Assembly: GCA_946411635.1 (NCBI GenBank)
Contig: CAMKES010000002.1
Location: forward strand, 134,585-198,584
Reading direction: 5' to 3'
From: an uncultured Clostridia bacterium
GTDB lineage: Bacteria > Bacillota > Clostridia > Christensenellales > CAG-138
DNA: 64,000 nt
Shown here: positions 3,602 through 56,274 of the stretch, one piece after another
Numbering within the stretch: position 1 is the stretch's first letter
Layout: each line of letters begins with the position of its first letter
Made by a program: the position numbers and the translations under genes
The notes under the pieces: generated by a model
The model's input: only the letters and a program-made list of their open reading frames with translations
The model's database searches: none
What the model was told of the DNA's origin: nothing

Positions 3602-4471
3602 TTACTCCCCGTATAAATGCACCTTCAGCATCGCATCTCCGTCTTTGACGGCGCCGATGCCGAGAAACCCGCCGCAGTATATGCGGTACGTTCCGTCCGC
3701 GGCGTTCGTCCGCGTCGGAAGCCCGTTCATCGCCGGGCGTCTGCGGTCCGCCCTGAGATCGAGCCGCGGCAGGAACGAAGCCGCCTGCTCGCAGCTTACG
3801 AGCGTTTCCTCCAGACGTCCCGCTTCTTTCATGCGCTGCAGTTCCGCGATCGGGAACGCGCCGTCCAGCGTGAACGGACCGGACGCCGTGCGCAGCAGAA
3901 ACGCCATGTGCGCGGGCACGCCGATCGCCGCGCCGAGATCGCTGCAAAGCGTGCGGATATACGTCCCGCGGGAGCAGCAGACCTCCAGAAGAAACCGGTT
4001 CGGCCCGATCGTTTCCGTCCGTCTGAGCGAGAAGATCTCGACCTCGCGGGACTTGTCGGGGATCTCCGCGCCCGAAAGCGCGAGATCGTAAAGCTTTTTT
4101 CCGTTGAATTTCAGCGCCGAATACATCGGCGGCTTCTGCACGATCGTTCCGGTAAACTGCGGAAGGACCGAGTCGAGCACGTCCTCCGCGACCGTGCGGT
4201 CGCTCGTTTCCGTTACCGTGCCCTGCGCGTCCTGCGTGTCGGTCGCGGCGCCGAAGACGATCTCGGCGAGGTACGTCTTGCGCTTGTCGACCAGGTAATC
4301 GAACAGGCGCACCGCGCGCCCGACGCAGACGGGCAGAACGCCCGCCGCCTCGGGATCCAGCGTTCCGAGATGCCCGACGCGCTTCGTTTCATAGATTTTC
4401 CGCACGTCCACCACGACGTCGCTCGAGGACATCGCCGGAGGTTTCAGCACGGTCACGATCCCTTCGATCAT
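3602..4471 (-). CDS. truB: tRNA pseudouridine(55) synthase
   Basis: 289 aa with the GHLGTLDPEAAGVLPVCVG catalytic-Asp motif. Position between nrnA and ribF is conserved. Confidence 0.93.
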   Translation of the reverse strand: MIEGIVTVLKPPAMSSSDVVVDVRKIYETKRVGHLGTLDPEAAGVLPVCVGRAVRLFDYLVDKRKTYLAEIVFGAATDTQDAQGTVTETSDRTVAEDVLDSVLPQFTGTIVQKPPMYSALKFNGKKLYDLALSGAEIPDKSREVEIFSLRRTETIGPNRFLLEVCCSRGTYIRTLCSDLGAAIGVPAHMAFLLRTASGPFTLDGAFPIAELQRMKEAGRLEETLVSCEQAASFLPRLDLRADRRRPAMNGLPTRTNAADGTYRIYCGGFLGIGAVKDGDAMLKVHLYGE

Positions 4472-8849: not shown

Positions 8850-9926
8850 TCATTCCTCCGTCTGATGCTCCGCAGCCGCGGCTTCGACCGCCGCGTCCGC
8901 CTGCGACTGGCTCTTGATATCGATCTTCCAGCCGGTCAGCTTCGCCGCAAGACGCGCGTTCTGACCCTCCTTGCCGATGGCAAGCGACAGCTGGGAATCC
9001 GGCACGACGACGCGGGCCGCTTTTTCGTCCTCGTTGACGTAGACCATCAGGACCTTCGCGGGGCTCAGCGCCTTTGCGATATAGATCGCGCTGTCGGAAT
9101 CGTACTCGATGATATCGATCTTCTCGTTGTGCAGTTCGTTGACGATGCGCTCTACGCGCGCGCCGCGCGGACCGACGCACGCGCCGACGGCGTCGACCTG
9201 CGGATCGGTCGAGAATACGGAGATCTTGGTGCGGAAGCCCGCTTCACGCGCGATCGATTTGATCTGGACCGTGCCGTTCATGATCTCGGGCACTTCAAGC
9301 TCGAACAGGCGCTTGACAAGGCTCGGATGCGTGCGGCTCACGACGATCTGCGGGCCCTTGTTCTCCTTGCGGACCTCCAGCACGTACACCTTGATGCGCT
9401 CGTTGTTCTCGTATTCCTCGCCGGGGATCATTTCGTTCGGCGTCAGGATGCCGTCCGTCTTGCCCAGCTCGACGTAAACGTTGCCCTTCTCCACGCGCTG
9501 CACGATCGCGGTCAGGATCTCGTTTTCCTTCTCCACGTATTCGTCGTAGATGTTGTTGCGTTCCGCCTCGCGGATGCGCTGGACCATGACCTGCTTCGCA
9601 GTCTGCGCGGCGATGCGGCCGAAGTCCTTCGCGAACGCTTCCTCCTCGAGCACGTCGCCGAGTTCATACAGCGGGTTGACCTTCTTCGCCTGTTCCAGCG
9701 AGATCTCCTGCGACGGATTCTCGACGGTCTCGACGACGGTCTTGCTCGCGTAGATGTGGTAGTCGCCGGTATCGCCGTCGACCTCGGCACGGACGTTGCC
9801 GGTCGAGTTGTAGTTGCGCTTATAGGCGACGATCAGCGCGGATTCAAATGCGGCCAGAAGCACGGACTTCTTGATGCCGCGTTCCTTTTCAAGTGCGTTC
9901 AGTGCTTCGATAAACTCTGCGTTCAT
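8850..9926 (-). CDS. nusA: Transcription termination/antitermination factor NusA
   Basis: 358 aa with N-terminus MNAEFIEALNALEKERGIKKSVLL, followed by S1 and two KH regions (GACVGPRGARVERIVNEL, AIGKEGQNARLAAKLTGWKIDI). Confidence 0.96.
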   Translation of the reverse strand: MNAEFIEALNALEKERGIKKSVLLAAFESALIVAYKRNYNSTGNVRAEVDGDTGDYHIYASKTVVETVENPSQEISLEQAKKVNPLYELGDVLEEEAFAKDFGRIAAQTAKQVMVQRIREAERNNIYDEYVEKENEILTAIVQRVEKGNVYVELGKTDGILTPNEMIPGEEYENNERIKVYVLEVRKENKGPQIVVSRTHPSLVKRLFELEVPEIMNGTVQIKSIAREAGFRTKISVFSTDPQVDAVGACVGPRGARVERIVNELHNEKIDIIEYDSDSAIYIAKALSPAKVLMVYVNEDEKAARVVVPDSQLSLAIGKEGQNARLAAKLTGWKIDIKSQSQADAAVEAAAAEHQTEE

Positions 9927-9946
9927 GATGGTGTTCCTTTCTGAAA

Positions 9947-10402
9947 TTAAAACCTGATGTTCGGACGGACGAGCGCGCAGTCCTTCTTTTTGACGGTCAG
10001 CGCGATCCCCGATTCCGTTTCCACGGTGAAGCCGTCCGCATCAAACGCGGTCAGCGTCCCGATCCATTGCTTTTTCCCGTTTTGCGGGGCGTACAGCTTG
10101 ATCTCAAGCTCCTGCCCCATCGCGCGTTCGAAATCGCGCGGCTTTTTGAGCGGGCGGTCGATCCCGAGCGAGGAGACCGACAGCACGTATTCCTGATCGA
10201 TCGGATCCGCCTCGTCCAGGATCGGCTCGATCGCGCGGCTGACCGCCTCGCAATCATCGATCGTGACGCCCTCGGGCCGGTCGATATAGAACGTCAGCAC
10301 CCAGTCGCCGTATTCGCGCTGATAGTCGACGTCGCACAGTTCGAATCCGAGCGATTCGATCTTCGCCTTGCAGAGATTCTCGCAGATCTCGGTCGTTTTC
10401 AC
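9947..10402 (-). CDS. rimP: Ribosome maturation factor RimP
   Basis: RimP-like sequence (GFELCDVDYQREYGDWVLTFYIDRPEGVTIDDCEAVSR). The start was set at the GTG at 10402, which has an AGGAAGGA RBS. The ORF-track ATG at 10453 would lie upstream of the leader terminator hairpin. Confidence 0.85.
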   Translation of the reverse strand: MKTTEICENLCKAKIESLGFELCDVDYQREYGDWVLTFYIDRPEGVTIDDCEAVSRAIEPILDEADPIDQEYVLSVSSLGIDRPLKKPRDFERAMGQELEIKLYAPQNGKKQWIGTLTAFDADGFTVETESGIALTVKKKDCALVRPNIRF

Positions 10403-14561: not shown

Positions 14562-14590
14562 ATTATATCCTGTTTTGCGGCGAATGTCAA
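14562..14590 (-). promoter_or_regulatory. Consensus sigma-A-type promoter of the decarboxylase operon
   Basis: The minus strand shows TTGACA (14585-14590), 17 nt, then TATAAT (14562-14567), about 85 nt upstream of the oadG-like start. Confidence 0.6.
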
Positions 14591-37315: not shown

Positions 37316-39211
37316 TCAATTCAATTCGAGGCAGAAGATGCGGGTCTGCTCCGTCGTGCCGGTGGTGGCGACGACGACGTAGTTGTTGAAGGCGACCGGC
37401 GTCGCGTCGATGCGGGCGCCGAGCTTCAATGCGGAAAGAGCGTTGTCGCCGGGACGCGCCGCGTCGTACAGACGGACGGCGCCGCTGCGGTCGCACGCGA
37501 TCAGGTACGCATCGCCGCGCTTGTTGTAGACGACGAGCGGCGAAGAAACGTAGTCCGCGCCGTCGGTCTGTTTGATCTCCCAGCGCACCTTTCCGGTGTC
37601 GCGCTCATAGGCGACGATCTTACCGCCGTACCCGTAAACCACGTTGCCTTCCGCGTCGACGGTGTCGACCGTAAGCCCGTAAAACGAGACGATGAGAAGA
37701 TCGCCGATCGTGCCGTGACCGATGTGCGGCGTGGCCTTTGCGCCGCCCTTCATGGCGTTCGCGGTGGTCGGGTCGAGGATCTGTACGATCTGCTTCTGCT
37801 CCCAGAGCATTTTGCCGGTGAGACCGTCGAATTTGCGGACGTAGGCATATCCGTAGCCGTTCGACAGGGTCTCGTCCTGCACGTTCGTCTGCGAGCAGGT
37901 GTACACGTAGATCGTTCCGGCGTCGCCGTCCTCCTCGATGACCGGCGTCGCGTCGGAATCTCCTCCGACATCGGCGACGAACTGAAGCTTCAGCGTGTTC
38001 AGATCGATGCACTGGAGCCTGCCGCCGTTGTCGGTCAGGTACAGATAATTGCGGAACGCGGCGACCGAGGATTCGAAGCCGTAAGAGCGCTTGCCCGGAA
38101 ACTCGGTGCCGGAATAGCCGGTGCCGCTGTAACGGTACTTGATGCGGTCGCCCGGACGGATCGAGAGCGAACCGGTCTCCGCGTCGTAGGACGTGTGCAG
38201 CTCGACGAGATACAGGACGCCGTTCTCGCCCGGCCAGATCAGCGTGTCGTTGATGATGAGCGGGCTCGAGTCGAACGCGCCCCAGTCGGTGCGGCGCGCG
38301 GTGTAGTCCTTGCCGCTGACGACGGTCTCGCGCGTGTTGCTGCAGAGATTGACCGCATAGGTCGCGGATTTGTTGGTGCCGTTTTCGGAAGCGGTGCCCT
38401 GCCCGATATAGAGCATCGGAATGCCGGTGGGATCGAGCGTGGGCGTGCCGAACATCGGCGCGCCGATTGGGATCGTCTCACGCGTGCGGGTTCCCGTTTC
38501 CAGTTCGTAGAAATAGATATTGCCGTCCGACGCGCAGAGGATGACCTCGTGAAGCTCGTCCTTGTTCTTGAATTCGTCGCGCACGCCGAGCGTCTTCAGC
38601 GTCTGCCCTTCCCACGTGACGATCAGCGGCTGACCGGTCCACGACGCGCCGGCAAAGCCGTTTGCGGAACCGATGGCGAACGCCCAGTCCTGCTTCATCG
38701 TCTGCATCGTGACCGTCGCGTATCCGTACGCGAATCCGCTGCGGTAATTGTTGCCCGCAAAGGTCGTGACGCCTTTCACCGCCGAGTATTCGGATCCCGG
38801 ACCGAAGGAAAAATCGTTTTCGTTCGGATTCGAGGAATAGCTCTCGTCGCGGTTGTTCTTGCGGATCTCGTAGGTAAAGCCGAAATTCGAGGGCTTCGAC
38901 TCCTCCGCCGCCTCCGCGCGGTACGTTCTGTCCTTCGGAAGCGCGGGCGGATCCGGGATCACCGACAGTTCGTTCTGTGCGGGGGCCGTGGCGGCGGCGC
39001 CCGGCGCGCTCGTTTCCGTGCCCGGATCGATCTCCTGCGCGAGCGAAAGCGCATCCTCGGCTCCGCCGCAGCGCGACCGGCGGCTGCCGGACGTATTGCT
39101 GCAGAGACCCGCCGCAAAGATCAGCAAAGCGACGGCGATCACCAGGATGAACACCGACGCGCAGAACAGTATGAACTTCGGACTGACCGTCCGTTCGTTT
39201 CTTCTTGCCAT
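37316..39211 (-). CDS. Membrane-anchored PQQ-like/BamB-like beta-propeller repeat protein (paralog 1)
   Basis: 631 aa with an N-terminal TM anchor (FILFCASVFILVIAVALLIFAAGL) and an extracytoplasmic region. That region shares blocks with paralog 2: TF.GNN.R, WTGQPLIV.W, DGNIYF..LETG and P.LY.G.G. The start at 39211 was chosen because a terminator and a promoter occupy 39218-39315. Confidence 0.8.
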   Translation of the reverse strand: MARRNERTVSPKFILFCASVFILVIAVALLIFAAGLCSNTSGSRRSRCGGAEDALSLAQEIDPGTETSAPGAAATAPAQNELSVIPDPPALPKDRTYRAEAAEESKPSNFGFTYEIRKNNRDESYSSNPNENDFSFGPGSEYSAVKGVTTFAGNNYRSGFAYGYATVTMQTMKQDWAFAIGSANGFAGASWTGQPLIVTWEGQTLKTLGVRDEFKNKDELHEVILCASDGNIYFYELETGTRTRETIPIGAPMFGTPTLDPTGIPMLYIGQGTASENGTNKSATYAVNLCSNTRETVVSGKDYTARRTDWGAFDSSPLIINDTLIWPGENGVLYLVELHTSYDAETGSLSIRPGDRIKYRYSGTGYSGTEFPGKRSYGFESSVAAFRNYLYLTDNGGRLQCIDLNTLKLQFVADVGGDSDATPVIEEDGDAGTIYVYTCSQTNVQDETLSNGYGYAYVRKFDGLTGKMLWEQKQIVQILDPTTANAMKGGAKATPHIGHGTIGDLLIVSFYGLTVDTVDAEGNVVYGYGGKIVAYERDTGKVRWEIKQTDGADYVSSPLVVYNKRGDAYLIACDRSGAVRLYDAARPGDNALSALKLGARIDATPVAFNNYVVVATTGTTEQTRIFCLELN

Positions 39212-39217
39212 GAGGGT

Positions 39218-39246
39218 ATTATACCGTATCGCGCGCGGATGCGCAA
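39218..39246 (-). promoter_or_regulatory. Promoter positioned for a leaderless transcript of propeller gene 1
   Basis: The minus strand shows TTGCGC (39241-39246), 17 nt, TATAAT (39218-39223), 6 nt, then the ATG at 39211. There is no SD-like sequence in between. Confidence 0.5.
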
Positions 39247-39277
39247 CGCGTAAATGCAAACTATTTTCGACTTTTCC

Positions 39278-39315
39278 GTAAAAGAAAATCCCCTTCCGCA
39301 AAGCGCGGAAGGGGA
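39278..39315 (-). terminator. Terminator after beta-propeller gene 2
   Basis: The minus strand reads TCCCCTTCCGC-GCTTT-GCGGAAGGGGA followed by TTTTCTTTTAC, 20 nt after the stop at 39335. Confidence 0.8.
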
Positions 39316-39334
39316 TCGGTTTTTTTCGTCGGGA

Positions 39335-41251
39335 TCACGAAAGCCGGATGCCGAAGATCGTCTGATCGCCGCGGCAGCCGACGACGATGATGTTGCCGAA
39401 CACGGCGGGCGACGCCTCAAAGTTGCTGTCGGTGAGCGAACCGATCGTGCGGAGAACGCTGCCGGTCGCGCCGTCGTACAGCGTGATGCGGCCCTTGGAA
39501 TCCGCCTGGATCACGTAGCCCTTGCCGTTCGTGTCGTAGACGACGGCGGGACTGGACCACGAATACGCGTCCATCGTCTGCTCCCAGCGGACCTCGAACG
39601 TGTTCTTGTCCAGCGCGACGAGGATGCCGGCATCCTTGTTCCTGTAGCGGGCAATCGTCACGAACACGAGGTCCGAGATGTTGCTGCCCTGTCTGCCGAT
39701 GCCCGCGGTCGCCTGAATGCCGCCCGATACGCCGGAGACCGTCTTGACCGTCAGCCCGTAGGGGACGTTTTCGATCTTGCCCGTCATGGCGTTGATCTTG
39801 AAGAACGGCGCGCGGCCTTCGCCGTTGACCGCCGTGAAGTGCAGGGACGTTCCGACGTACAGATACGCCTCGTCGTCGGAGATCACGTCGAGCACGGGGC
39901 TCGCGTTCGTATCGTCCTGCGTGTCGGCGATCCAGACGCAGCGCATCGTGTTGAGGTCGATGCACTGGAACATGCCGTCGTTGCTCGAGAGATACAGGAA
40001 ACCGTTCCACGCGGCGGCGCTGCCCTCGTAGCCCTGCCACTTGTGCGCAGAGTCCGCCTTGTCGATCTTGTCGTAAATGTTGCTGCAGTCGTAGCGGAAC
40101 TTGACGATATTCGTCGGGTTGACCGAGATCGAGCGTGTCGAAGGATCGTAGATCGTGTTGAGCTTCATCGTGTAGATGATGCCGTTCTCGCCCGGATAGA
40201 TCAGCGTGTCGGTCTTCGCGTCGATCAGCGGCGCGGAGTCGTACGCGTACCACTCTCTTCTTGCAAAGTTGTCGGTCCCCTGCTTGCCGAATTCATACAA
40301 CACGCGGCCGTCGATCAGCGAGATGATGAACGCGCGCGATTTCTGGCTGTCGTTCTCGTACTGGTCGCCGGAGCCGAGATACAGCAGCGGATAGCCGCGC
40401 GGATCGATGCTGCCGGTCCCCTTGAACGGGACGTTCATGCGGATCGGGTCGCGCGTCTGCTCGCCCGTTTCGAGATCGATGAAGTAGATGTTGCCGTCCT
40501 CGGTCGGATAGATGACCTCAACGAGGCCGTCCTTGTTCTGCGCCCACTCCTTCATGTTCATGATCCGTCGCGTTTCCGCGGGCCACTGCACGATCAGGGG
40601 CTGTCCCGTCCAGCCGCAGCCGGACCAGCTTCCGCTGCCGCCGCCCTTCGTGAGCGAACCGATCTTGACCTCCCAGATCTTGGTGAACTGATACTCGGTC
40701 AGGCTGACGGTTCCGACGCTCGACGTGTTTCTCCAGTTGTTGCCGCGGAAGGTCAGGATGCCCTTGACATTTTCCGCATTGTATTCGTCCGCGCGCGGGA
40801 ACACGATCTCCTCGTCGCGGCGGTAGTTCAGCGCGTCGCTGTCGTCCCTCCGCTCGCCGTTGATCTCCAGATGCGGCACGAACATGTACTGCTTCGGATC
40901 GGATTCGGCGATCATGTACGGAGTCGGAACGGGCGTCGGAACAGGGGTCGGTTCCGGCGTGGGGACCTCGGTCGGCTGCGGCGGGATCGTCGCGCCGTTC
41001 TTGTAGTCCTCCCAGGACGGCACCACGTAATCGACGCCGTCGTATTTGTCCGGATTCTGCGCCTTCGCGGATGCGAAGGATTCCTCCGCCTGCCGTCTTG
41101 CGGCATCGTAGTCGCACTTCTTCATGCTTTCTCTGATCAGCACTGCAAGCAGGACGATCAGCGTCAGGATCAGAACGATGAAGATCGAGACGATCACGTA
41201 AAAGCGCGGCTGCACCTTCCTTCTTCTTTTTTTCTTATGTTGCGTTGTCAT
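39335..41251 (-). CDS. Membrane-anchored PQQ-like/BamB-like beta-propeller repeat protein (paralog 2)
   Basis: 638 aa with a basic N-terminus, a TM anchor (FYVIVSIFIVLILTLIVLLAVLI), a Pro/Thr linker (PTEVPTPEPTPVPTPVPTP) and a propeller region homologous to paralog 1. A GGAGGAATC RBS precedes the ATG at 41251. Confidence 0.85.
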   Translation of the reverse strand: MTTQHKKKRRRKVQPRFYVIVSIFIVLILTLIVLLAVLIRESMKKCDYDAARRQAEESFASAKAQNPDKYDGVDYVVPSWEDYKNGATIPPQPTEVPTPEPTPVPTPVPTPYMIAESDPKQYMFVPHLEINGERRDDSDALNYRRDEEIVFPRADEYNAENVKGILTFRGNNWRNTSSVGTVSLTEYQFTKIWEVKIGSLTKGGGSGSWSGCGWTGQPLIVQWPAETRRIMNMKEWAQNKDGLVEVIYPTEDGNIYFIDLETGEQTRDPIRMNVPFKGTGSIDPRGYPLLYLGSGDQYENDSQKSRAFIISLIDGRVLYEFGKQGTDNFARREWYAYDSAPLIDAKTDTLIYPGENGIIYTMKLNTIYDPSTRSISVNPTNIVKFRYDCSNIYDKIDKADSAHKWQGYEGSAAAWNGFLYLSSNDGMFQCIDLNTMRCVWIADTQDDTNASPVLDVISDDEAYLYVGTSLHFTAVNGEGRAPFFKINAMTGKIENVPYGLTVKTVSGVSGGIQATAGIGRQGSNISDLVFVTIARYRNKDAGILVALDKNTFEVRWEQTMDAYSWSSPAVVYDTNGKGYVIQADSKGRITLYDGATGSVLRTIGSLTDSNFEASPAVFGNIIVVGCRGDQTIFGIRLS

Positions 41252-41649: not shown

Positions 41650-41681
41650 CGAAAAAAGGCGTTCCGTGCGGGAACGCCTTT
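41650..41681 (-). terminator. glmM operon terminator
   Basis: The minus strand reads AAAGGCGTTCC-CGCAC-GGAACGCCTTT followed by TTTCGTT (six U in a row counting the stem end). Its 5' arm lies inside copy 1 of the 36-bp repeat. Confidence 0.75.
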
Positions 41682-41785: not shown

Positions 41786-43132
41786 TTACGCCAGATGCCC
41801 CTTCGCCTTGATGACGTCGATCACGGAATCGACGTATTTTTCGCAGATCTCGTCCGTATCCGCCTCGACCATGACGCGGATGACCGGCTCCGTGCCGCTC
41901 TCGCGCACGAGGATGCGGCCGGTGTCGCCGAGCTCGTCGGCGACCCGTTTTACCGCCGCCTGCACGTCCGGATCGTTCTGCGCGTCGGGCTTGGACTTGA
42001 CGCGGACGTTCTTCAGCACCTGCGGATAGAATACGACCGGCGCCGCGAGCTCGCTCATCGGCTTGCCCTTTGCGAGCATGACCTCCATCAGCTTCAGCGA
42101 GGTCAGAATGCCGTCGCCCGTCGTTTCATACTTCAGGAAGATGGTGTGACCGCTCTGCTCGCCGCCGATGCGGTTGCCGGTCTTTACCATGTTTTCGTAG
42201 ACGTACTTGTCGCCGACCTTGGTCTTTTCGTATTCGATGCCGACCTTGTCGAGCGCCTTGTAGAGACCGAAGTTCGACATGACGGTCGTGACGACCTTGT
42301 TGTTCAGGAGCTTGCCGCGCTCCTTCATATACAGGCCGTAGATATAGAGCGTATGATCGCCGGTGACGACGTTGCCCTTTTCGTCCACGCAGAGGCAGCG
42401 GTCTGCGTCGCCGTCGTAGGCGAAGCCCACGTCGAGACCGTTCTCGACGACGAATTTCTGCAGATGCCCGATGTGCGTCGAGCCGCAGTCGGTATTGATG
42501 TTGTAGCCGTCCGGCTGGTCGTTCATGACGTAGACCTTCGCGCCGAGCGCTTCAAATACGCCGCGCGCGATCATCCAGGCCGCGCCGTTCGCGACGTCCA
42601 GTCCGACCTTGACGCCCTTGAAGCTGTACTTGCTCATCGAGATCAAAAAGCCGATGTAGCGGTTTCTGCCCGCAACGTAGTCGACGGTGCGGCCGATCTC
42701 GTGACCCTCGGCGACGGGGACCTCGCACTTGCCGTCGAGATAATCCTCCACCTTCAGGATCGTTTCTTCGTCCATTTTCTCGCCGTGTCCGTTCAGAAGC
42801 TTGATGCCGTTGTCATAGTACGGATTGTGCGAGGCGGAGATCATGATGCCGCAGTCGAAGTCGTCGACGCGCGTGATATACGCGACCGACGGCGTGGTCG
42901 TGACGTGCATGATGTACGCGTCCGCACCGGACGCCATCAGCCCCGTGCAGAGCGCGTACTCGAACATATAGCTCGACCGGCGGGTATCCTTGCCGATCAC
43001 GACCTTGGCCTTCTTGTTCTGCCGCGCGCCGTAATACCAGCCGAGATACCGGCCGATCTGCACGGCGTGCTCAAAGGTCAGGTTCTTGTTCGCCTCGCCG
43101 CGAAAACCGTCCGTTCCGAAATATTTGCCCAT
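41786..43132 (-). CDS. glmM: Phosphoglucosamine mutase
   Basis: 448 aa (MGKYFGTDGFRGEANK...) with the active-site segment ISASHNPYYDNGIKL. The ATG at 43132 has a GGAGGA RBS 6 nt upstream. Confidence 0.95.
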   Translation of the reverse strand: MGKYFGTDGFRGEANKNLTFEHAVQIGRYLGWYYGARQNKKAKVVIGKDTRRSSYMFEYALCTGLMASGADAYIMHVTTTPSVAYITRVDDFDCGIMISASHNPYYDNGIKLLNGHGEKMDEETILKVEDYLDGKCEVPVAEGHEIGRTVDYVAGRNRYIGFLISMSKYSFKGVKVGLDVANGAAWMIARGVFEALGAKVYVMNDQPDGYNINTDCGSTHIGHLQKFVVENGLDVGFAYDGDADRCLCVDEKGNVVTGDHTLYIYGLYMKERGKLLNNKVVTTVMSNFGLYKALDKVGIEYEKTKVGDKYVYENMVKTGNRIGGEQSGHTIFLKYETTGDGILTSLKLMEVMLAKGKPMSELAAPVVFYPQVLKNVRVKSKPDAQNDPDVQAAVKRVADELGDTGRILVRESGTEPVIRVMVEADTDEICEKYVDSVIDVIKAKGHLA

Positions 43133-43794
43133 CACCGTTCCTCCTTTGATGCGACCGTTCCGTTGTCCTTCCAGATGCTGTACGGCGGTACGACCCCGCG
43201 CACGCAGGACGTCGGATAGACGTTGCTGTGCGGCCCGATGACCGTGCCGGGATTGCAGACCGCGTTGCAGCCGACCTCGACGTAATCGCCGAGCATCGCG
43301 CCGAACTTCTTGATGCCGGTCTCGATCTCTTCATCGGCGCCGTGCACCACGACGAGTTTTTTGTCGCTCTTGACGTTCGAGGTGATGCTGCCCGCGCCCA
43401 TGTGGCTGTAATAGCCGAGGATCGAGTCGCCGACATAGTTGTAATGCGGGGTCTGCACGTGATCGAACAGGATCACGTTCTTGAGTTCCACGGAGTTGCC
43501 GACGACGCAGTTCGCGCCGACGAGCGCGCTGCCGCGGATGAACGCACAGTGGCGCACCTCCGTTTCGGGTCCGATGATGCAGGGCGCGCCGAGATACGCC
43601 GACGGGAAGACCTTCGCCGTCTTATGCACCCAGACGTGCTCCGAAACCTCCTCATAGTCCGCGCCGAGTGTCGGCCCGAGCGTGAGGATGAAGTCCTTCA
43701 GGCCCTTCAGCGCCTCCCACGGATAAGTGAACTGCAGGAGATAGTCCTTTGCAAGCGTATGATCGAGATCATACAGGTCTTTGATCGTCATCAT
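43132..43794 (-). CDS. Left-handed beta-helix (hexapeptide-repeat) transferase, GlmU C-terminal-domain-like
   Basis: 220 aa with hexapeptide-repeat segments (GAPCIIGPETEVRHCAFIRGSALVGANCVVGNSVELKNVILFD..., YVGDSILG). The ATG at 43794 has a GAGAGG RBS. It lies between nagB and glmM. The exact acceptor substrate is not determinable from sequence. Confidence 0.7.
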   Translation of the reverse strand: MMTIKDLYDLDHTLAKDYLLQFTYPWEALKGLKDFILTLGPTLGADYEEVSEHVWVHKTAKVFPSAYLGAPCIIGPETEVRHCAFIRGSALVGANCVVGNSVELKNVILFDHVQTPHYNYVGDSILGYYSHMGAGSITSNVKSDKKLVVVHGADEEIETGIKKFGAMLGDYVEVGCNAVCNPGTVIGPHSNVYPTSCVRGVVPPYSIWKDNGTVASKEER

Positions 43795-43796
43795 GC

Positions 43797-44588
43797 TCAA
43801 AGCCTCTCGTTTCTCTCGATGTCGAGGAAATACTTGTACGTATCGACGGTCAGCTCGCCGCACGCCGCCTCGTCGCACGCGATGATCGCGGCGTTGTGCA
43901 GCTGCAGTGCGGAGCAGGTCCACTTATGGCTGACGCCGCCTTCGACGGTCGCCGCAAGCGCGCGCGCCTTGTTGTGTCCGTTGATCAGGATCAGCACTTC
44001 TTTGCTGTCCGTAACGGTGCCGACGCCGACGGAAAGCGCCTGTGCGGGGACCTTTTCCGGATCGTTTCCGAAGAAGCGCGAATTCACGATGCGCGTGTCC
44101 GTGGTGAGGTTCCGCACGCCGGTGCGGGAGTTCAGCGAAGTGTACGGCTCGTTGAACGCGATGTGTCCGTCCACGCCGATGCCGCCCATGAACAGGTCGA
44201 TGCCGCCGTATGAGCGGATCTTCTCCTCATAGCGGGCGCATTCGCCCTCGGGATCATCCGTCATGCCGTTCAGAATGTTGATGTTCTCCGGCTTCATATC
44301 GACCAGATGATCGAAGAAATTCTCGTGCATGAAGTACCAGTAGCTCTGATCGTGCTCGTGCGGCAGGCCGAGGTATTCGTCCATGTTGAAGGTGACGACG
44401 TTTGCAAACGACACCTCGCCCGCGCGGTTCATGCGCGCAAGCTCCCGGTAAACGCCGATGGGGCTCGAGCCCGTCGGAAGACCCAGCACGAAGGGACGGC
44501 TCCCCTGATGCGCGTTGATCTTCGCGGCGATGTAGCGCGCCGCCCAAAGGCTCATTTTTTCGTAATTGTCCTGGATGACAACTCTCAT
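43797..44588 (-). CDS. nagB: Glucosamine-6-phosphate deaminase/isomerase (NagB type)
   Basis: 263 aa ([24 protein letters not shown]...[18 protein letters not shown]...FNMDEYLGL). An AAGGAGAAACGAT RBS precedes the ATG at 44588. Confidence 0.93.
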
Positions 44589-44635
44589 ATCGTTTCTCCT
44601 TATTGCTTGGTTCGTTCGGTCCGCAGTTCATTCTA

Positions 44636-44797
44636 TGCGAAATCCGTCCGATCTTGCCGACGTTCGGGATCGCTCTGTTGCGGTGTTGATTCCGTTTTTT
44701 GTCGTTCCCTTTTCGACCCGTCGCAGGCCGCGGCAGCATCCGCCGAATCGTTCGATAAACTGCCGGTCCTCGTCGCCCCGAAGGGCCTGGCGCTGAC
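44636..44797 (-). ncRNA. glmS (glucosamine-6-phosphate-activated) ribozyme-like leader
   Basis: The minus strand reads GUC-A|GCGCCAG-GCCC-UUCG-GGGC-GACGAGGA-CCGGCAG-UUUAUCGAA-CGA-UUCGGCGGAUG-CUGCCG-...AAAAGGGAACGACAAA.... The conserved core strands and the P1 and P2 helices appear in the canonical order. The predicted cleavage site is between 44794 and 44793. The 3' boundary is approximate. Confidence 0.8.
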
Positions 44798-44858
44798 GGT
44801 CCTCCAACCCTCCTCCATGAAGAAGCCGTTTTACTGCGTTATGCTCCATAACAGAAGT

Positions 44859-44887
44859 ATTATATACGAAATATAGTATCATGTCAA
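44859..44887 (-). promoter_or_regulatory. Consensus promoter of the ribozyme-nagB operon
   Basis: The minus strand shows TTGACA (44882-44887), 17 nt, then TATAAT (44859-44864), about 60 nt upstream of the predicted ribozyme cleavage site. Confidence 0.7.
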
Positions 44888-44918: not shown

Positions 44919-44957
44919 AAAAAAGGAGAGCGCCGATAATCGGCACTCTCCTTTTTA
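44919..44957. terminator. Bidirectional-looking terminator hairpin
   Basis: AAAAAA-GGAGAGCGCCG-ataat-CGGCACTCTCC-TTTTT (one mismatch). It isolates the nagB promoter from the small upstream ORF. Confidence 0.7.
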
Positions 44958-56157: not shown

Positions 56158-56186
56158 TTGACAAGGCCATATGACCATGCTATAAT
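56158..56186 (+). promoter_or_regulatory. Consensus promoter of tRNA-fMet
   Basis: TTGACA (56158-56163), 17 nt, then TATAAT (56181-56186), 12 nt upstream of the tRNA 5' end. Confidence 0.75.
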
Positions 56187-56198
56187 TCATTTTACCGT

Positions 56199-56274
56199 CG
56201 CGGGGTGGAGCAGTCGGTAGCTCGTCGGGCTCATAACCCGGAGGCCGCAGGTTCAAGTCCTGCCCCCGCAACCA
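56199..56274 (+). tRNA. Initiator tRNA-Met (anticodon CAU)
   Basis: CGCGGGGTGGAGCAGTCGGTAGCTCGTCGGGCTCATAACCCGGAGGCCGCAGGTTCAAGTCCTGCCCCCGCAACCA folds as a cloverleaf. It has a C1xA72 mismatch, three consecutive G-C pairs in the anticodon stem (GGG/CCC), anticodon CAT and an encoded CCA. Confidence 0.93.

Follow-up and report, generated by a model that had tools for sequence, protein, structure and literature searches.

A glmS ribozyme heads a conserved nagB operon in ruminant-gut Clostridia and may place NagB under feedback by glucosamine-6-phosphate

Which enzyme does a glmS ribozyme control when the gene behind it is not glmS? The question was raised by 64,000 nucleotides (nt) of DNA from an uncultured Clostridia bacterium (GTDB lineage Bacillota; Clostridia; Christensenellales; CAG-138), located on contig CAMKES010000002.1 of GenBank assembly GCA_946411635.1 (positions 134,585 to 198,584 of the forward strand). 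This whole stretch is referred to as the window. The glmS ribozyme is the textbook leader of glmS, the gene for glucosamine-6-phosphate (GlcN6P) synthase, and it is this role that has drawn interest in it as an antibacterial target. In the window, a ribozyme of this family was followed by nagB, the gene for a GlcN6P deaminase. It is a known ribozyme in a new and conserved gene context. Full-text literature searches returned no title or abstract describing a ribozyme-nagB linkage; a passing earlier mention is possible. GlcN6P-triggered cleavage of the leader probably shuts off an operon whose NagB would form GlcN6P from fructose-6-phosphate (Fru6P) and ammonium.

The whole window was scanned with cmscan against Rfam 15. 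Two matches exceeded the gathering score, one tRNA and one RF00234, the glmS ribozyme. With 54.9 bits the latter exceeded the gathering score of 37 bits (E = 6.1e-10), and its untruncated alignment covered the complete model, positions 1-167 of 167. The scissile A|G was placed within A|GCGCC at 44794/44793, where cleavage is predicted. P1 was minimal, consisting of 4 bp and a UUCG loop (GCCC-UUCG-GGGC). The alignment further contained P2, formed by CGGCA/UGCCG, and P3. The core strands AGCGCC, GACGAGGA, UUUAUCGA and UUCGGCGGAUG were aligned and the 3' P4 domain carried the AAAA and ACAGAG strands. The canonical order was kept, reading A|GCGCC, GACGAGGA, UUAUCGA, UCGGCGGAUG, AAAA and ACAGAG. 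An earlier note on this DNA, made from the letters alone, had described the leader as glmS ribozyme-like, and all the strands that it listed were reproduced.

Conservation of the element was assessed with 17 aligned homologues from different species. AGCGCC and GACGAGG were invariant and the remaining core strands nearly so. The RNAalifold consensus comprised 31 pairs, 16 of which showed compensatory double changes, located in P1, P2, P3 and both P4 helices. The strands of the double pseudoknot core (P2.1/P2.2) were conserved in sequence; covariance models and RNAalifold ignore pseudoknots, and P2.1/P2.2 pairing lies outside the count of 31. With 16 of 31 pairs covarying and the core strands invariant or nearly so, the ribozyme bears the mark of a functional RNA under selection. 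The minimum free energy (MFE) fold of the single leader sequence was unremarkable (z = -0.54), as expected for a pseudoknotted ribozyme, and was uninformative. All computational criteria that were applied assign the RNA to RF00234, and GlcN6P-dependent self-cleavage is predicted for it. Its departure from the usual description of the family is the gene context only.

Behind the ribozyme, nagB opens a closely packed operon of three genes, namely nagB, the gene for a left-handed beta-helix (LbH) protein and glmM, with one promoter and one terminator (Table 1). The perfect promoter and the 263-amino acid (aa) NagB as the first open reading frame (ORF) after the element had both been reported in the earlier note and were recovered here; the gene for an LbH acetyltransferase-like protein and glmM as further members of the operon go beyond it. 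Perfect TTGACA-17-TATAAT promoters occurred at three sites in the window versus none in 100 shuffles. Transcription of the operon would start near 44852. The 3' end of the ribozyme (44656) and the nagB ATG (44588) were separated by 67 nt, in which the window scan detected no promoter-like or terminator-like site. nagB was translationally coupled to the LbH gene and glmM, with a 2-nt gap followed by an overlap. The glmM start overlapped the LbH stop, and gene calls on identical contigs put the start 1 nt inside that stop. The terminator of the upstream unit, whose stem was listed by the terminator scan as its plus-strand image at 44932-44944, is predicted to insulate the operon from upstream transcription. 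Three consecutive steps are encoded, namely Fru6P to and from GlcN6P, GlcN6P to glucosamine-1-phosphate (GlcN-1-P) and, as predicted, GlcN-1-P to N-acetylglucosamine-1-phosphate (GlcNAc-1-P).

Table 1. Features of the ribozyme-led operon, in order of transcription (positions refer to the window)
Feature	Position	Strand	Details
Intrinsic terminator of upstream unit	44919..44956	minus	AAAAAGGAGAGUGCCG-AUUA-UCGGCGCUCUCC-UUUUUU; read by eye
Sigma-70-type promoter	44859..44887	minus	TTGACA-17-TATAAT; 12/12 match
glmS ribozyme RF00234	44656..44805	minus	full-length cmscan match, 54.9 bits
Shine-Dalgarno sequence	44595..44601	minus	AAGGAGA, 6 nt 5' of nagB ATG; read from sequence
nagB	43797..44588	minus	263 aa; TIGR00502, 376.4 bits
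LbH acetyltransferase-like gene	43132..43794	minus	220 aa; starts 2 nt past nagB stop
glmM	41786..43135 (start 43135/43132)	minus	448/449 aa; TIGR01455, 548.3 bits
Operon-end intrinsic terminator	41655..41681	minus	11-bp stem, then T run; top-ranked terminator-like site of the minus strand

The other two perfect promoters were found at 14562-14590 (minus) and 56158-56186 (plus), the latter just upstream of a tRNA at 56199-56271 (anticodon CAU by alignment). Directly downstream of the operon, at 37316-41251 (minus), was a pair of paralogues, each about 640-660 aa long, encoding N-terminally anchored beta-propeller proteins (PQQ_2 / Beta-prop_ACSF4 matches on identical contigs).

The first protein of the operon exceeded the TIGR00502 cutoff of 236.9 bits, scored 75 bits with PF01182 (cutoff 27) and was 59% identical to Escherichia coli NagB. 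Its closest solved structures were 7lqm and 1cd5. It appears to belong to the long, E. coli-like (hexameric) type. The catalytic residues (D72, D141, H143, E148, R172 and K208 in E. coli numbering) were intact, being identical in the window NagB and in all 80 relatives described below. S151, R158, K160 and Y254 are presumably the ligands of the allosteric N-acetylglucosamine-6-phosphate (GlcNAc6P) site in hexameric E. coli-type NagB. At these positions S151T, R158G and K160R were found with Y254 kept, throughout almost all of the NagB clade, both with and without linkage to a ribozyme. Being so widespread, these changes do not discriminate between roles of NagB. As judged from these positions, NagBs of the clade may not be activated by GlcNAc6P.

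The LbH protein aligned with the C-terminal portion of two models, TIGR03992 (Arch_glmU, positions 211-393) and TIGR03991, without reaching their full-length cutoffs. The scores were 140 bits against a cutoff of 292 for TIGR03992 and 48.5 bits against 367 for TIGR01173. Among solved structures, the Sulfolobus tokodaii dual sugar-1-phosphate nucleotidylyltransferase (5z09/2ggo, residues 230-390) ranked first and GlmU C-terminal domains came next. The protein also resembled S. tokodaii ST0452 in its acetyltransferase domain. A full GlmU was ruled out, the 220 aa comprising the LbH half only and the scores lying below the equivalog cutoffs. The protein was filed as GlmU-C-terminal-like because only the LbH half is present, and a stand-alone GlcN-1-P N-acetyltransferase is predicted. 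GlmM exceeded the TIGR01455 cutoff of 447.55 bits and carried four PGM_PMM domains.

Identical NagB proteins in the same gene order were present on at least 21 metagenome contigs. More distant relatives were collected by searching one genome per GTDB species with the window NagB, which gave 80 loci at 70-94% identity. Most of them were metagenome-assembled genomes (MAGs) from the ruminant gut labelled Clostridia, Oscillospiraceae or Lachnospiraceae. One cultured isolate was included, the rumen Ruminococcaceae bacterium P7, and the cluster was almost confined to ruminant gut MAGs and this isolate. Ribozymes were detected with an nhmmer profile and spot-checked with cmscan. The core regular expression alone was rejected as a detector; it recovered 19 species-representative loci (24 matches with five same-species contigs) and missed variants like CGGCGGGUG. 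With nhmmer, the ribozyme was found in 24 of the 80 species-representative loci, always on the same strand and upstream of the cluster, and cmscan confirmed 11 of 11 relatives checked with 40.7-71.4 bits. The first gene after the ribozyme was nagB in 20 of the 24 loci, the LbH gene (lbh) in three (L009, L011 and L018, ordered ribozyme-lbh-nagB-glmM or ribozyme-lbh-glmM-nagB) and glmM in one (L050). The ribozyme thus kept its head position whatever the gene order of the cluster. One locus, L012, showed the ribozyme ahead of nagB and no glmM or lbh detected downstream. NagBs at 70-75% identity were linked to neither ribozyme, glmM nor lbh. On high-GC contigs, gene maps drawn by greedy ORF picking around loci with nagB alone were unreliable. 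No nagA was present in ribozyme-linked clusters among the loci examined, and nagA was found only in three loci, all without ribozyme. Uptake genes beside nagB were likewise absent from ribozyme-linked clusters.

Sequence identity within the cluster was high. NagB, LbH and GlmM were about 76-93% identical across most MAGs (L006-L050) despite differing flanking genes. Only L006 was syntenic with the window in this comparison, and it kept the beta-propeller paralogues at 67-70% identity. The GC content of L006-L050 ranged from 0.41 to 0.65 and that of the cluster followed the flanks. For a housekeeping gene such as glmM, this identity pattern suggests either that the module spread horizontally within the rumen Firmicutes long ago or that constraint is unusually strong. 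A MAG labelled Erysipelotrichaceae (L021:6006-13945, no ribozyme) held nagA and lbh-nagB(263 aa)-glmM together with a second nagB of the short Bacillus type (246 aa), 1 kb further along. Two NagB subtypes next to each other may point to a division between anabolic and catabolic roles. Two further RNAs were observed near ribozyme-less clusters. The leader of nagB-glmM in L027 (~9800-10000) had by eye the look of a small signal recognition particle RNA (GUCAGGGCCGGAAGGCAGCAGC, then a terminator). L033 contained a raiA RNA at 3958-4120 (RF03072, 136 bits), about 6 kb upstream of nagB-glmM-lbh and probably unrelated to the cluster.

The range of gene contexts was examined by scanning public metagenome contigs with a ribozyme-core pattern. 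At least 120 stretches, a non-random sample, were oriented and classified by their downstream genes. Among the 120 matches listed, 98 had glmS first and eight had the nagB/lbh/glmM cluster; seven were too short, six were chance matches and one was a degenerate locus. The six chance matches lay in high-GC coding sequence without the AGCGCC strand and were excluded, as was L146, a degenerate or chimeric locus. The nagB-cluster type therefore accounted for ~7% of the classifiable ribozymes among the matches listed (8 of ~106), and none of these real ribozymes showed a third gene context. The cluster-type contigs had nagB first in L088, L093, L119 and L127, lbh first in L149, L155 and L163, and glmM first in L185. 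With a hidden Markov model of the clade, seven of the eight cluster-linked ribozymes scored 110-128 bits versus at most 77 bits for glmS-linked ones. The exceptions were the glmS-linked L202 with 101.7 bits and the cluster-linked L155 with 28 bits. By sequence, the nagB-cluster ribozymes appear to form a clade of their own. In L167 the gene after a ribozyme-glmS unit encoded an LbH protein that shared 45% identity with that of the window, and L155 carried ribozyme-lbh-glmM (60% identity). On account of these two contigs, the stand-alone GlmU-C-terminal-like acetyltransferase occurs in glmS-ribozyme regulons beyond the nagB clade.

How could such a leader serve NagB? One transcript from about 44852 would comprise the ribozyme leader and the coding regions for NagB, the LbH protein and GlmM. 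With GlcN6P scarce, the leader would stay intact and the three enzymes would be made. NagB would then work in the aminating direction (Fru6P + NH4+ to GlcN6P), GlmM would convert GlcN6P to GlcN-1-P and the LbH protein would acetylate GlcN-1-P en route to UDP-N-acetylglucosamine (UDP-GlcNAc). With GlcN6P abundant, the metabolite would act as ribozyme cofactor and the leader would be cleaved at A44794|G44793. The downstream fragment with its 5'-OH would then be degraded, as in Bacillus, and the operon would be off. The module would constitute an ammonia-driven entry into amino sugars suited to the ammonia-rich ruminant gut, acting besides, or in some lineages in place of, the glutamine-dependent GlmS.

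Ruminal ammonia reaches millimolar to tens of millimolar concentrations, which would favour amination. That nearly all carriers come from ruminants fits an ammonia-driven NagB, although the query biases the search. The OFF logic of glmS ribozymes, with GlcN6P as cofactor, cleavage and mRNA loss, is established (PMC5473149). It is the only logic compatible with the leader, since glmS, glmM and the acetyltransferase gene share such leaders. Because the L050 ribozyme heads glmM-nagB-glmS, the OFF logic that fits glmS applies to nagB too. A catabolic role makes little sense for a deaminase repressed by its own substrate and never found with nagA. The context of glmM, an acetyltransferase-like gene, a GlcN6P-repressed leader and no nagA would hardly suit net catabolism, in which nagA is the usual partner of nagB. 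Precedents exist in Giardia and Entamoeba, which have anabolic NagB-family enzymes with a Michaelis constant (Km) for NH4Cl of 19-23 mM and no GlcN6P synthase (PMC4281351). The proposal in the earlier note that NagB forms GlcN6P under ribozyme feedback gained strength from the coupling to lbh and glmM, the linkage in 24 genomes and the lack of nagA; its suggestion that NagB stands in for a missing GlmS was not supported in that form.

Several observations weigh against this reading, among them the distribution of GlmS. A tblastn search with E. coli GlmS (E <= 1e-5) found no GlmS in the 64-kb window, in agreement with the earlier note. The same query found GlmS in four related loci (L020, L032, L048 and L050), complete with GATase and two SIS domains and encoded in or beside the cluster. 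L050 was arranged as ribozyme-glmM-nagB-glmS with a 72-nt gap, L020 as ribozyme-nagB-lbh-glmM-glycosyltransferase (GT2)-glmS and L048 as ribozyme-nagB-glmM followed after 2.6 kb by glmS; each of these three had a single ribozyme, heading the cluster. L032 was arranged as nagB-lbh-glmM-glmS without ribozyme. As these four relatives carry both enzymes, NagB and GlmS are not mutually exclusive in the lineage, and with GlmS encoded there NagB is dispensable as the sole source of GlcN6P. NagB may act as an addition to GlmS and not as its replacement, and a catabolic or buffering role of NagB may be compatible with the GlmS-bearing relatives.

Other points concern the enzyme and the sampling. In Akkermansia, which is without glmS, NagB was judged unable to aminate physiologically, with a Km of 41 mM for NH4+ and 5.5 mM for Fru6P (PMC5902328). 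It follows from this judgement that reversal of NagB is not automatic, which is the chief caution against the anabolic reading. No feature at the catalytic or allosteric positions set ribozyme-linked NagBs apart from unlinked close relatives. Ten otherwise similar clusters had no ribozyme and were preceded by ordinary short leaders, in which nhmmer at relaxed settings (E <= 10, filters off) detected no degenerate ribozymes. The ruminant bias may partly come from the rumen-derived query. The analysis establishes what the RNA and the three proteins are, how the operon is built and that the linkage is conserved; self-cleavage, the ensuing mRNA decay, the direction of NagB in vivo and the activity of the LbH protein are predictions from sequence.

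The origin of the arrangement may be reflected in metagenome contig L202. In its oriented sequence (L202:1413-3569), a nagB-clade ribozyme was in the canonical position directly before glmS. This glmS was 74% identical to the L048 GlmS and was followed by Rnf-like genes. L202 possibly represents the ancestral state. We infer a series in which nagB, lbh and glmM were inserted between the ribozyme and glmS of a ribozyme-glmS unit as in L202, by way of ribozyme-glmM-nagB-glmS as in L050, leading to the window-like operon without glmS. That NagB replaces GlmS in this genome is unproven, the absence of glmS covering the 64-kb window only. In a more far-reaching version, the ribozyme of a clade of ruminant-gut Clostridia was handed from GlmS to NagB as the main or only GlcN6P synthase of genomes that lost glmS. 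NagB, the stand-alone GlcN-1-P acetyltransferase and GlmM would there make up a horizontally spreading, ammonia-driven UDP-GlcNAc module under ribozyme feedback. This version is less likely than not.

Three other explanations of the leader were considered. According to the first, the ribozyme serves glmM, the LbH acetyltransferase gene and sometimes glmS, with NagB as a co-expressed catabolic deaminase and GlmS encoded elsewhere as the supplier of GlcN6P. NagB would be an equilibrating or safety valve that prevents an overshoot of GlcN6P during operation of the pathway. This is unlikely, as the deaminase would be on at low GlcN6P and off at high GlcN6P, the reverse of a relief valve, and would form a futile glutaminase cycle together with GlmS. 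The GlmS genes beside nagB in L020, L032, L048 and L050 favour the explanation, and the rest of the genome outside the window could encode GlmS. However, nagB directly followed the ribozyme in 20 of 24 loci, in L012 without a following glmM or lbh, and was accompanied by neither nagA nor uptake genes. The general preference of characterised NagB enzymes for deamination (PMC5902328) is in line with a valve.

The second explanation treats the ribozyme as an ON switch, whereby cleavage would remove an inhibitory leader and stabilise or activate the nagB mRNA, and GlcN6P would induce a catabolic nagB. We know of no activating glmS ribozyme. The idea would make GlcN6P sensing consistent with a catabolic NagB, and the RNases of the host determine what becomes of the cleaved mRNA. 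It is nevertheless highly improbable. The leader also governs glmM, the acetyltransferase gene and, in L050, glmS, where induction by GlcN6P would be senseless, and the same ribozyme clade was canonical before glmS in L202. Moreover, no alternative structure sequestering the ribosome-binding site was evident in the leader, in line with the unremarkable MFE z-score given above. The third, a non-functional relic of a ribozyme-glmS unit with an effectively constitutive nagB, could draw on the score of 54.9 bits versus up to 71.4 in relatives, on a few non-canonical P4 pairs and on the clade's presence before glmS in L202, but is scarcely credible given that the highly conserved core positions are all intact, compensatory changes maintain the helices across 17 divergent sequences and the element is kept in 24 species and eight metagenome contigs, which indicates purifying selection.

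The proposed feedback-repressed, GlcN6P-forming NagB can be compared with known systems. The window RNA shares its family, cleavage-site and core strands and helices with the canonical glmS ribozymes of Bacillus subtilis, B. anthracis and Thermoanaerobacter tengcongensis. It is likewise a promoter-proximal 5' leader, ~70 nt before the first start codon, and presumably shares the canonical course from GlcN6P binding to mRNA loss (PMC5473149). It differs by its minimal P1, its own sequence clade and its position before nagB, the LbH acetyltransferase gene and glmM instead of glmS. Vogler, Trentmann and Lengeler reportedly showed in 1989 that E. coli glmS mutants are rescued by derepressed nagB at high ammonium, so that an abundant NagB of the E. 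coli type can furnish GlcN6P in vivo under that condition. That rescue was a laboratory suppressor, in contrast to the natural, dedicated and feedback-regulated arrangement proposed here for a NagB 59% identical to the E. coli enzyme. The GlmNagB/Gnp1 enzymes of Giardia lamblia and Entamoeba resemble the proposal in that an aminating NagB provides the first committed amino-sugar step in gut organisms and expression is tied to product demand (PMC4281351). Unlike the window system, they are eukaryotic and induced transcriptionally during encystment, with no riboswitch (PMC4281351). They are monomers, dimers or tetramers, whereas the window NagB resembles the hexameric E. coli type. Both protists are reported to lack GlcN6P synthase, while for the source genome the absence of glmS refers to the window only. 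In the gut bacterium Akkermansia muciniphila, NagB is the only candidate for the interconversion of Fru6P and GlcN6P (PMC5902328). Akkermansia needs external GlcNAc and has neither the ribozyme nor a glmM linkage; the operon and its predicted feedback in the window point to synthesis instead. The GlmY/GlmZ/RapZ system of Enterobacteria follows the same principle of GlcN6P repressing the mRNA of its producer, with different machinery consisting of small RNAs and an adaptor protein and with GlmS as target (PMC7073468).

The arrangement presents the glmS ribozyme as a GlcN6P sensor that is portable and can in evolution be joined to another enzyme making the same metabolite. It would also supply regulatory evidence for anabolic work of a 'catabolic' NagB in bacteria, a matter debated since the E. 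coli suppressor studies and answered negatively for Akkermansia. Should the more far-reaching version given above prove true, bacteria would have their first equivalent of the anabolic deaminase of Giardia and Entamoeba, and for the first time a glmS ribozyme would have been shown to control an enzyme other than GlmS. As the carrier Ruminococcaceae bacterium P7 is cultured, the hypothesis can be tested directly. There would be consequences for genome annotation and metabolic models, in which GlmS is gap-filled and NagB is set as catabolic only. For the organisms themselves, the finding suggests that rumen Firmicutes spare glutamine and ATP by taking cell-wall nitrogen straight from abundant ammonia.

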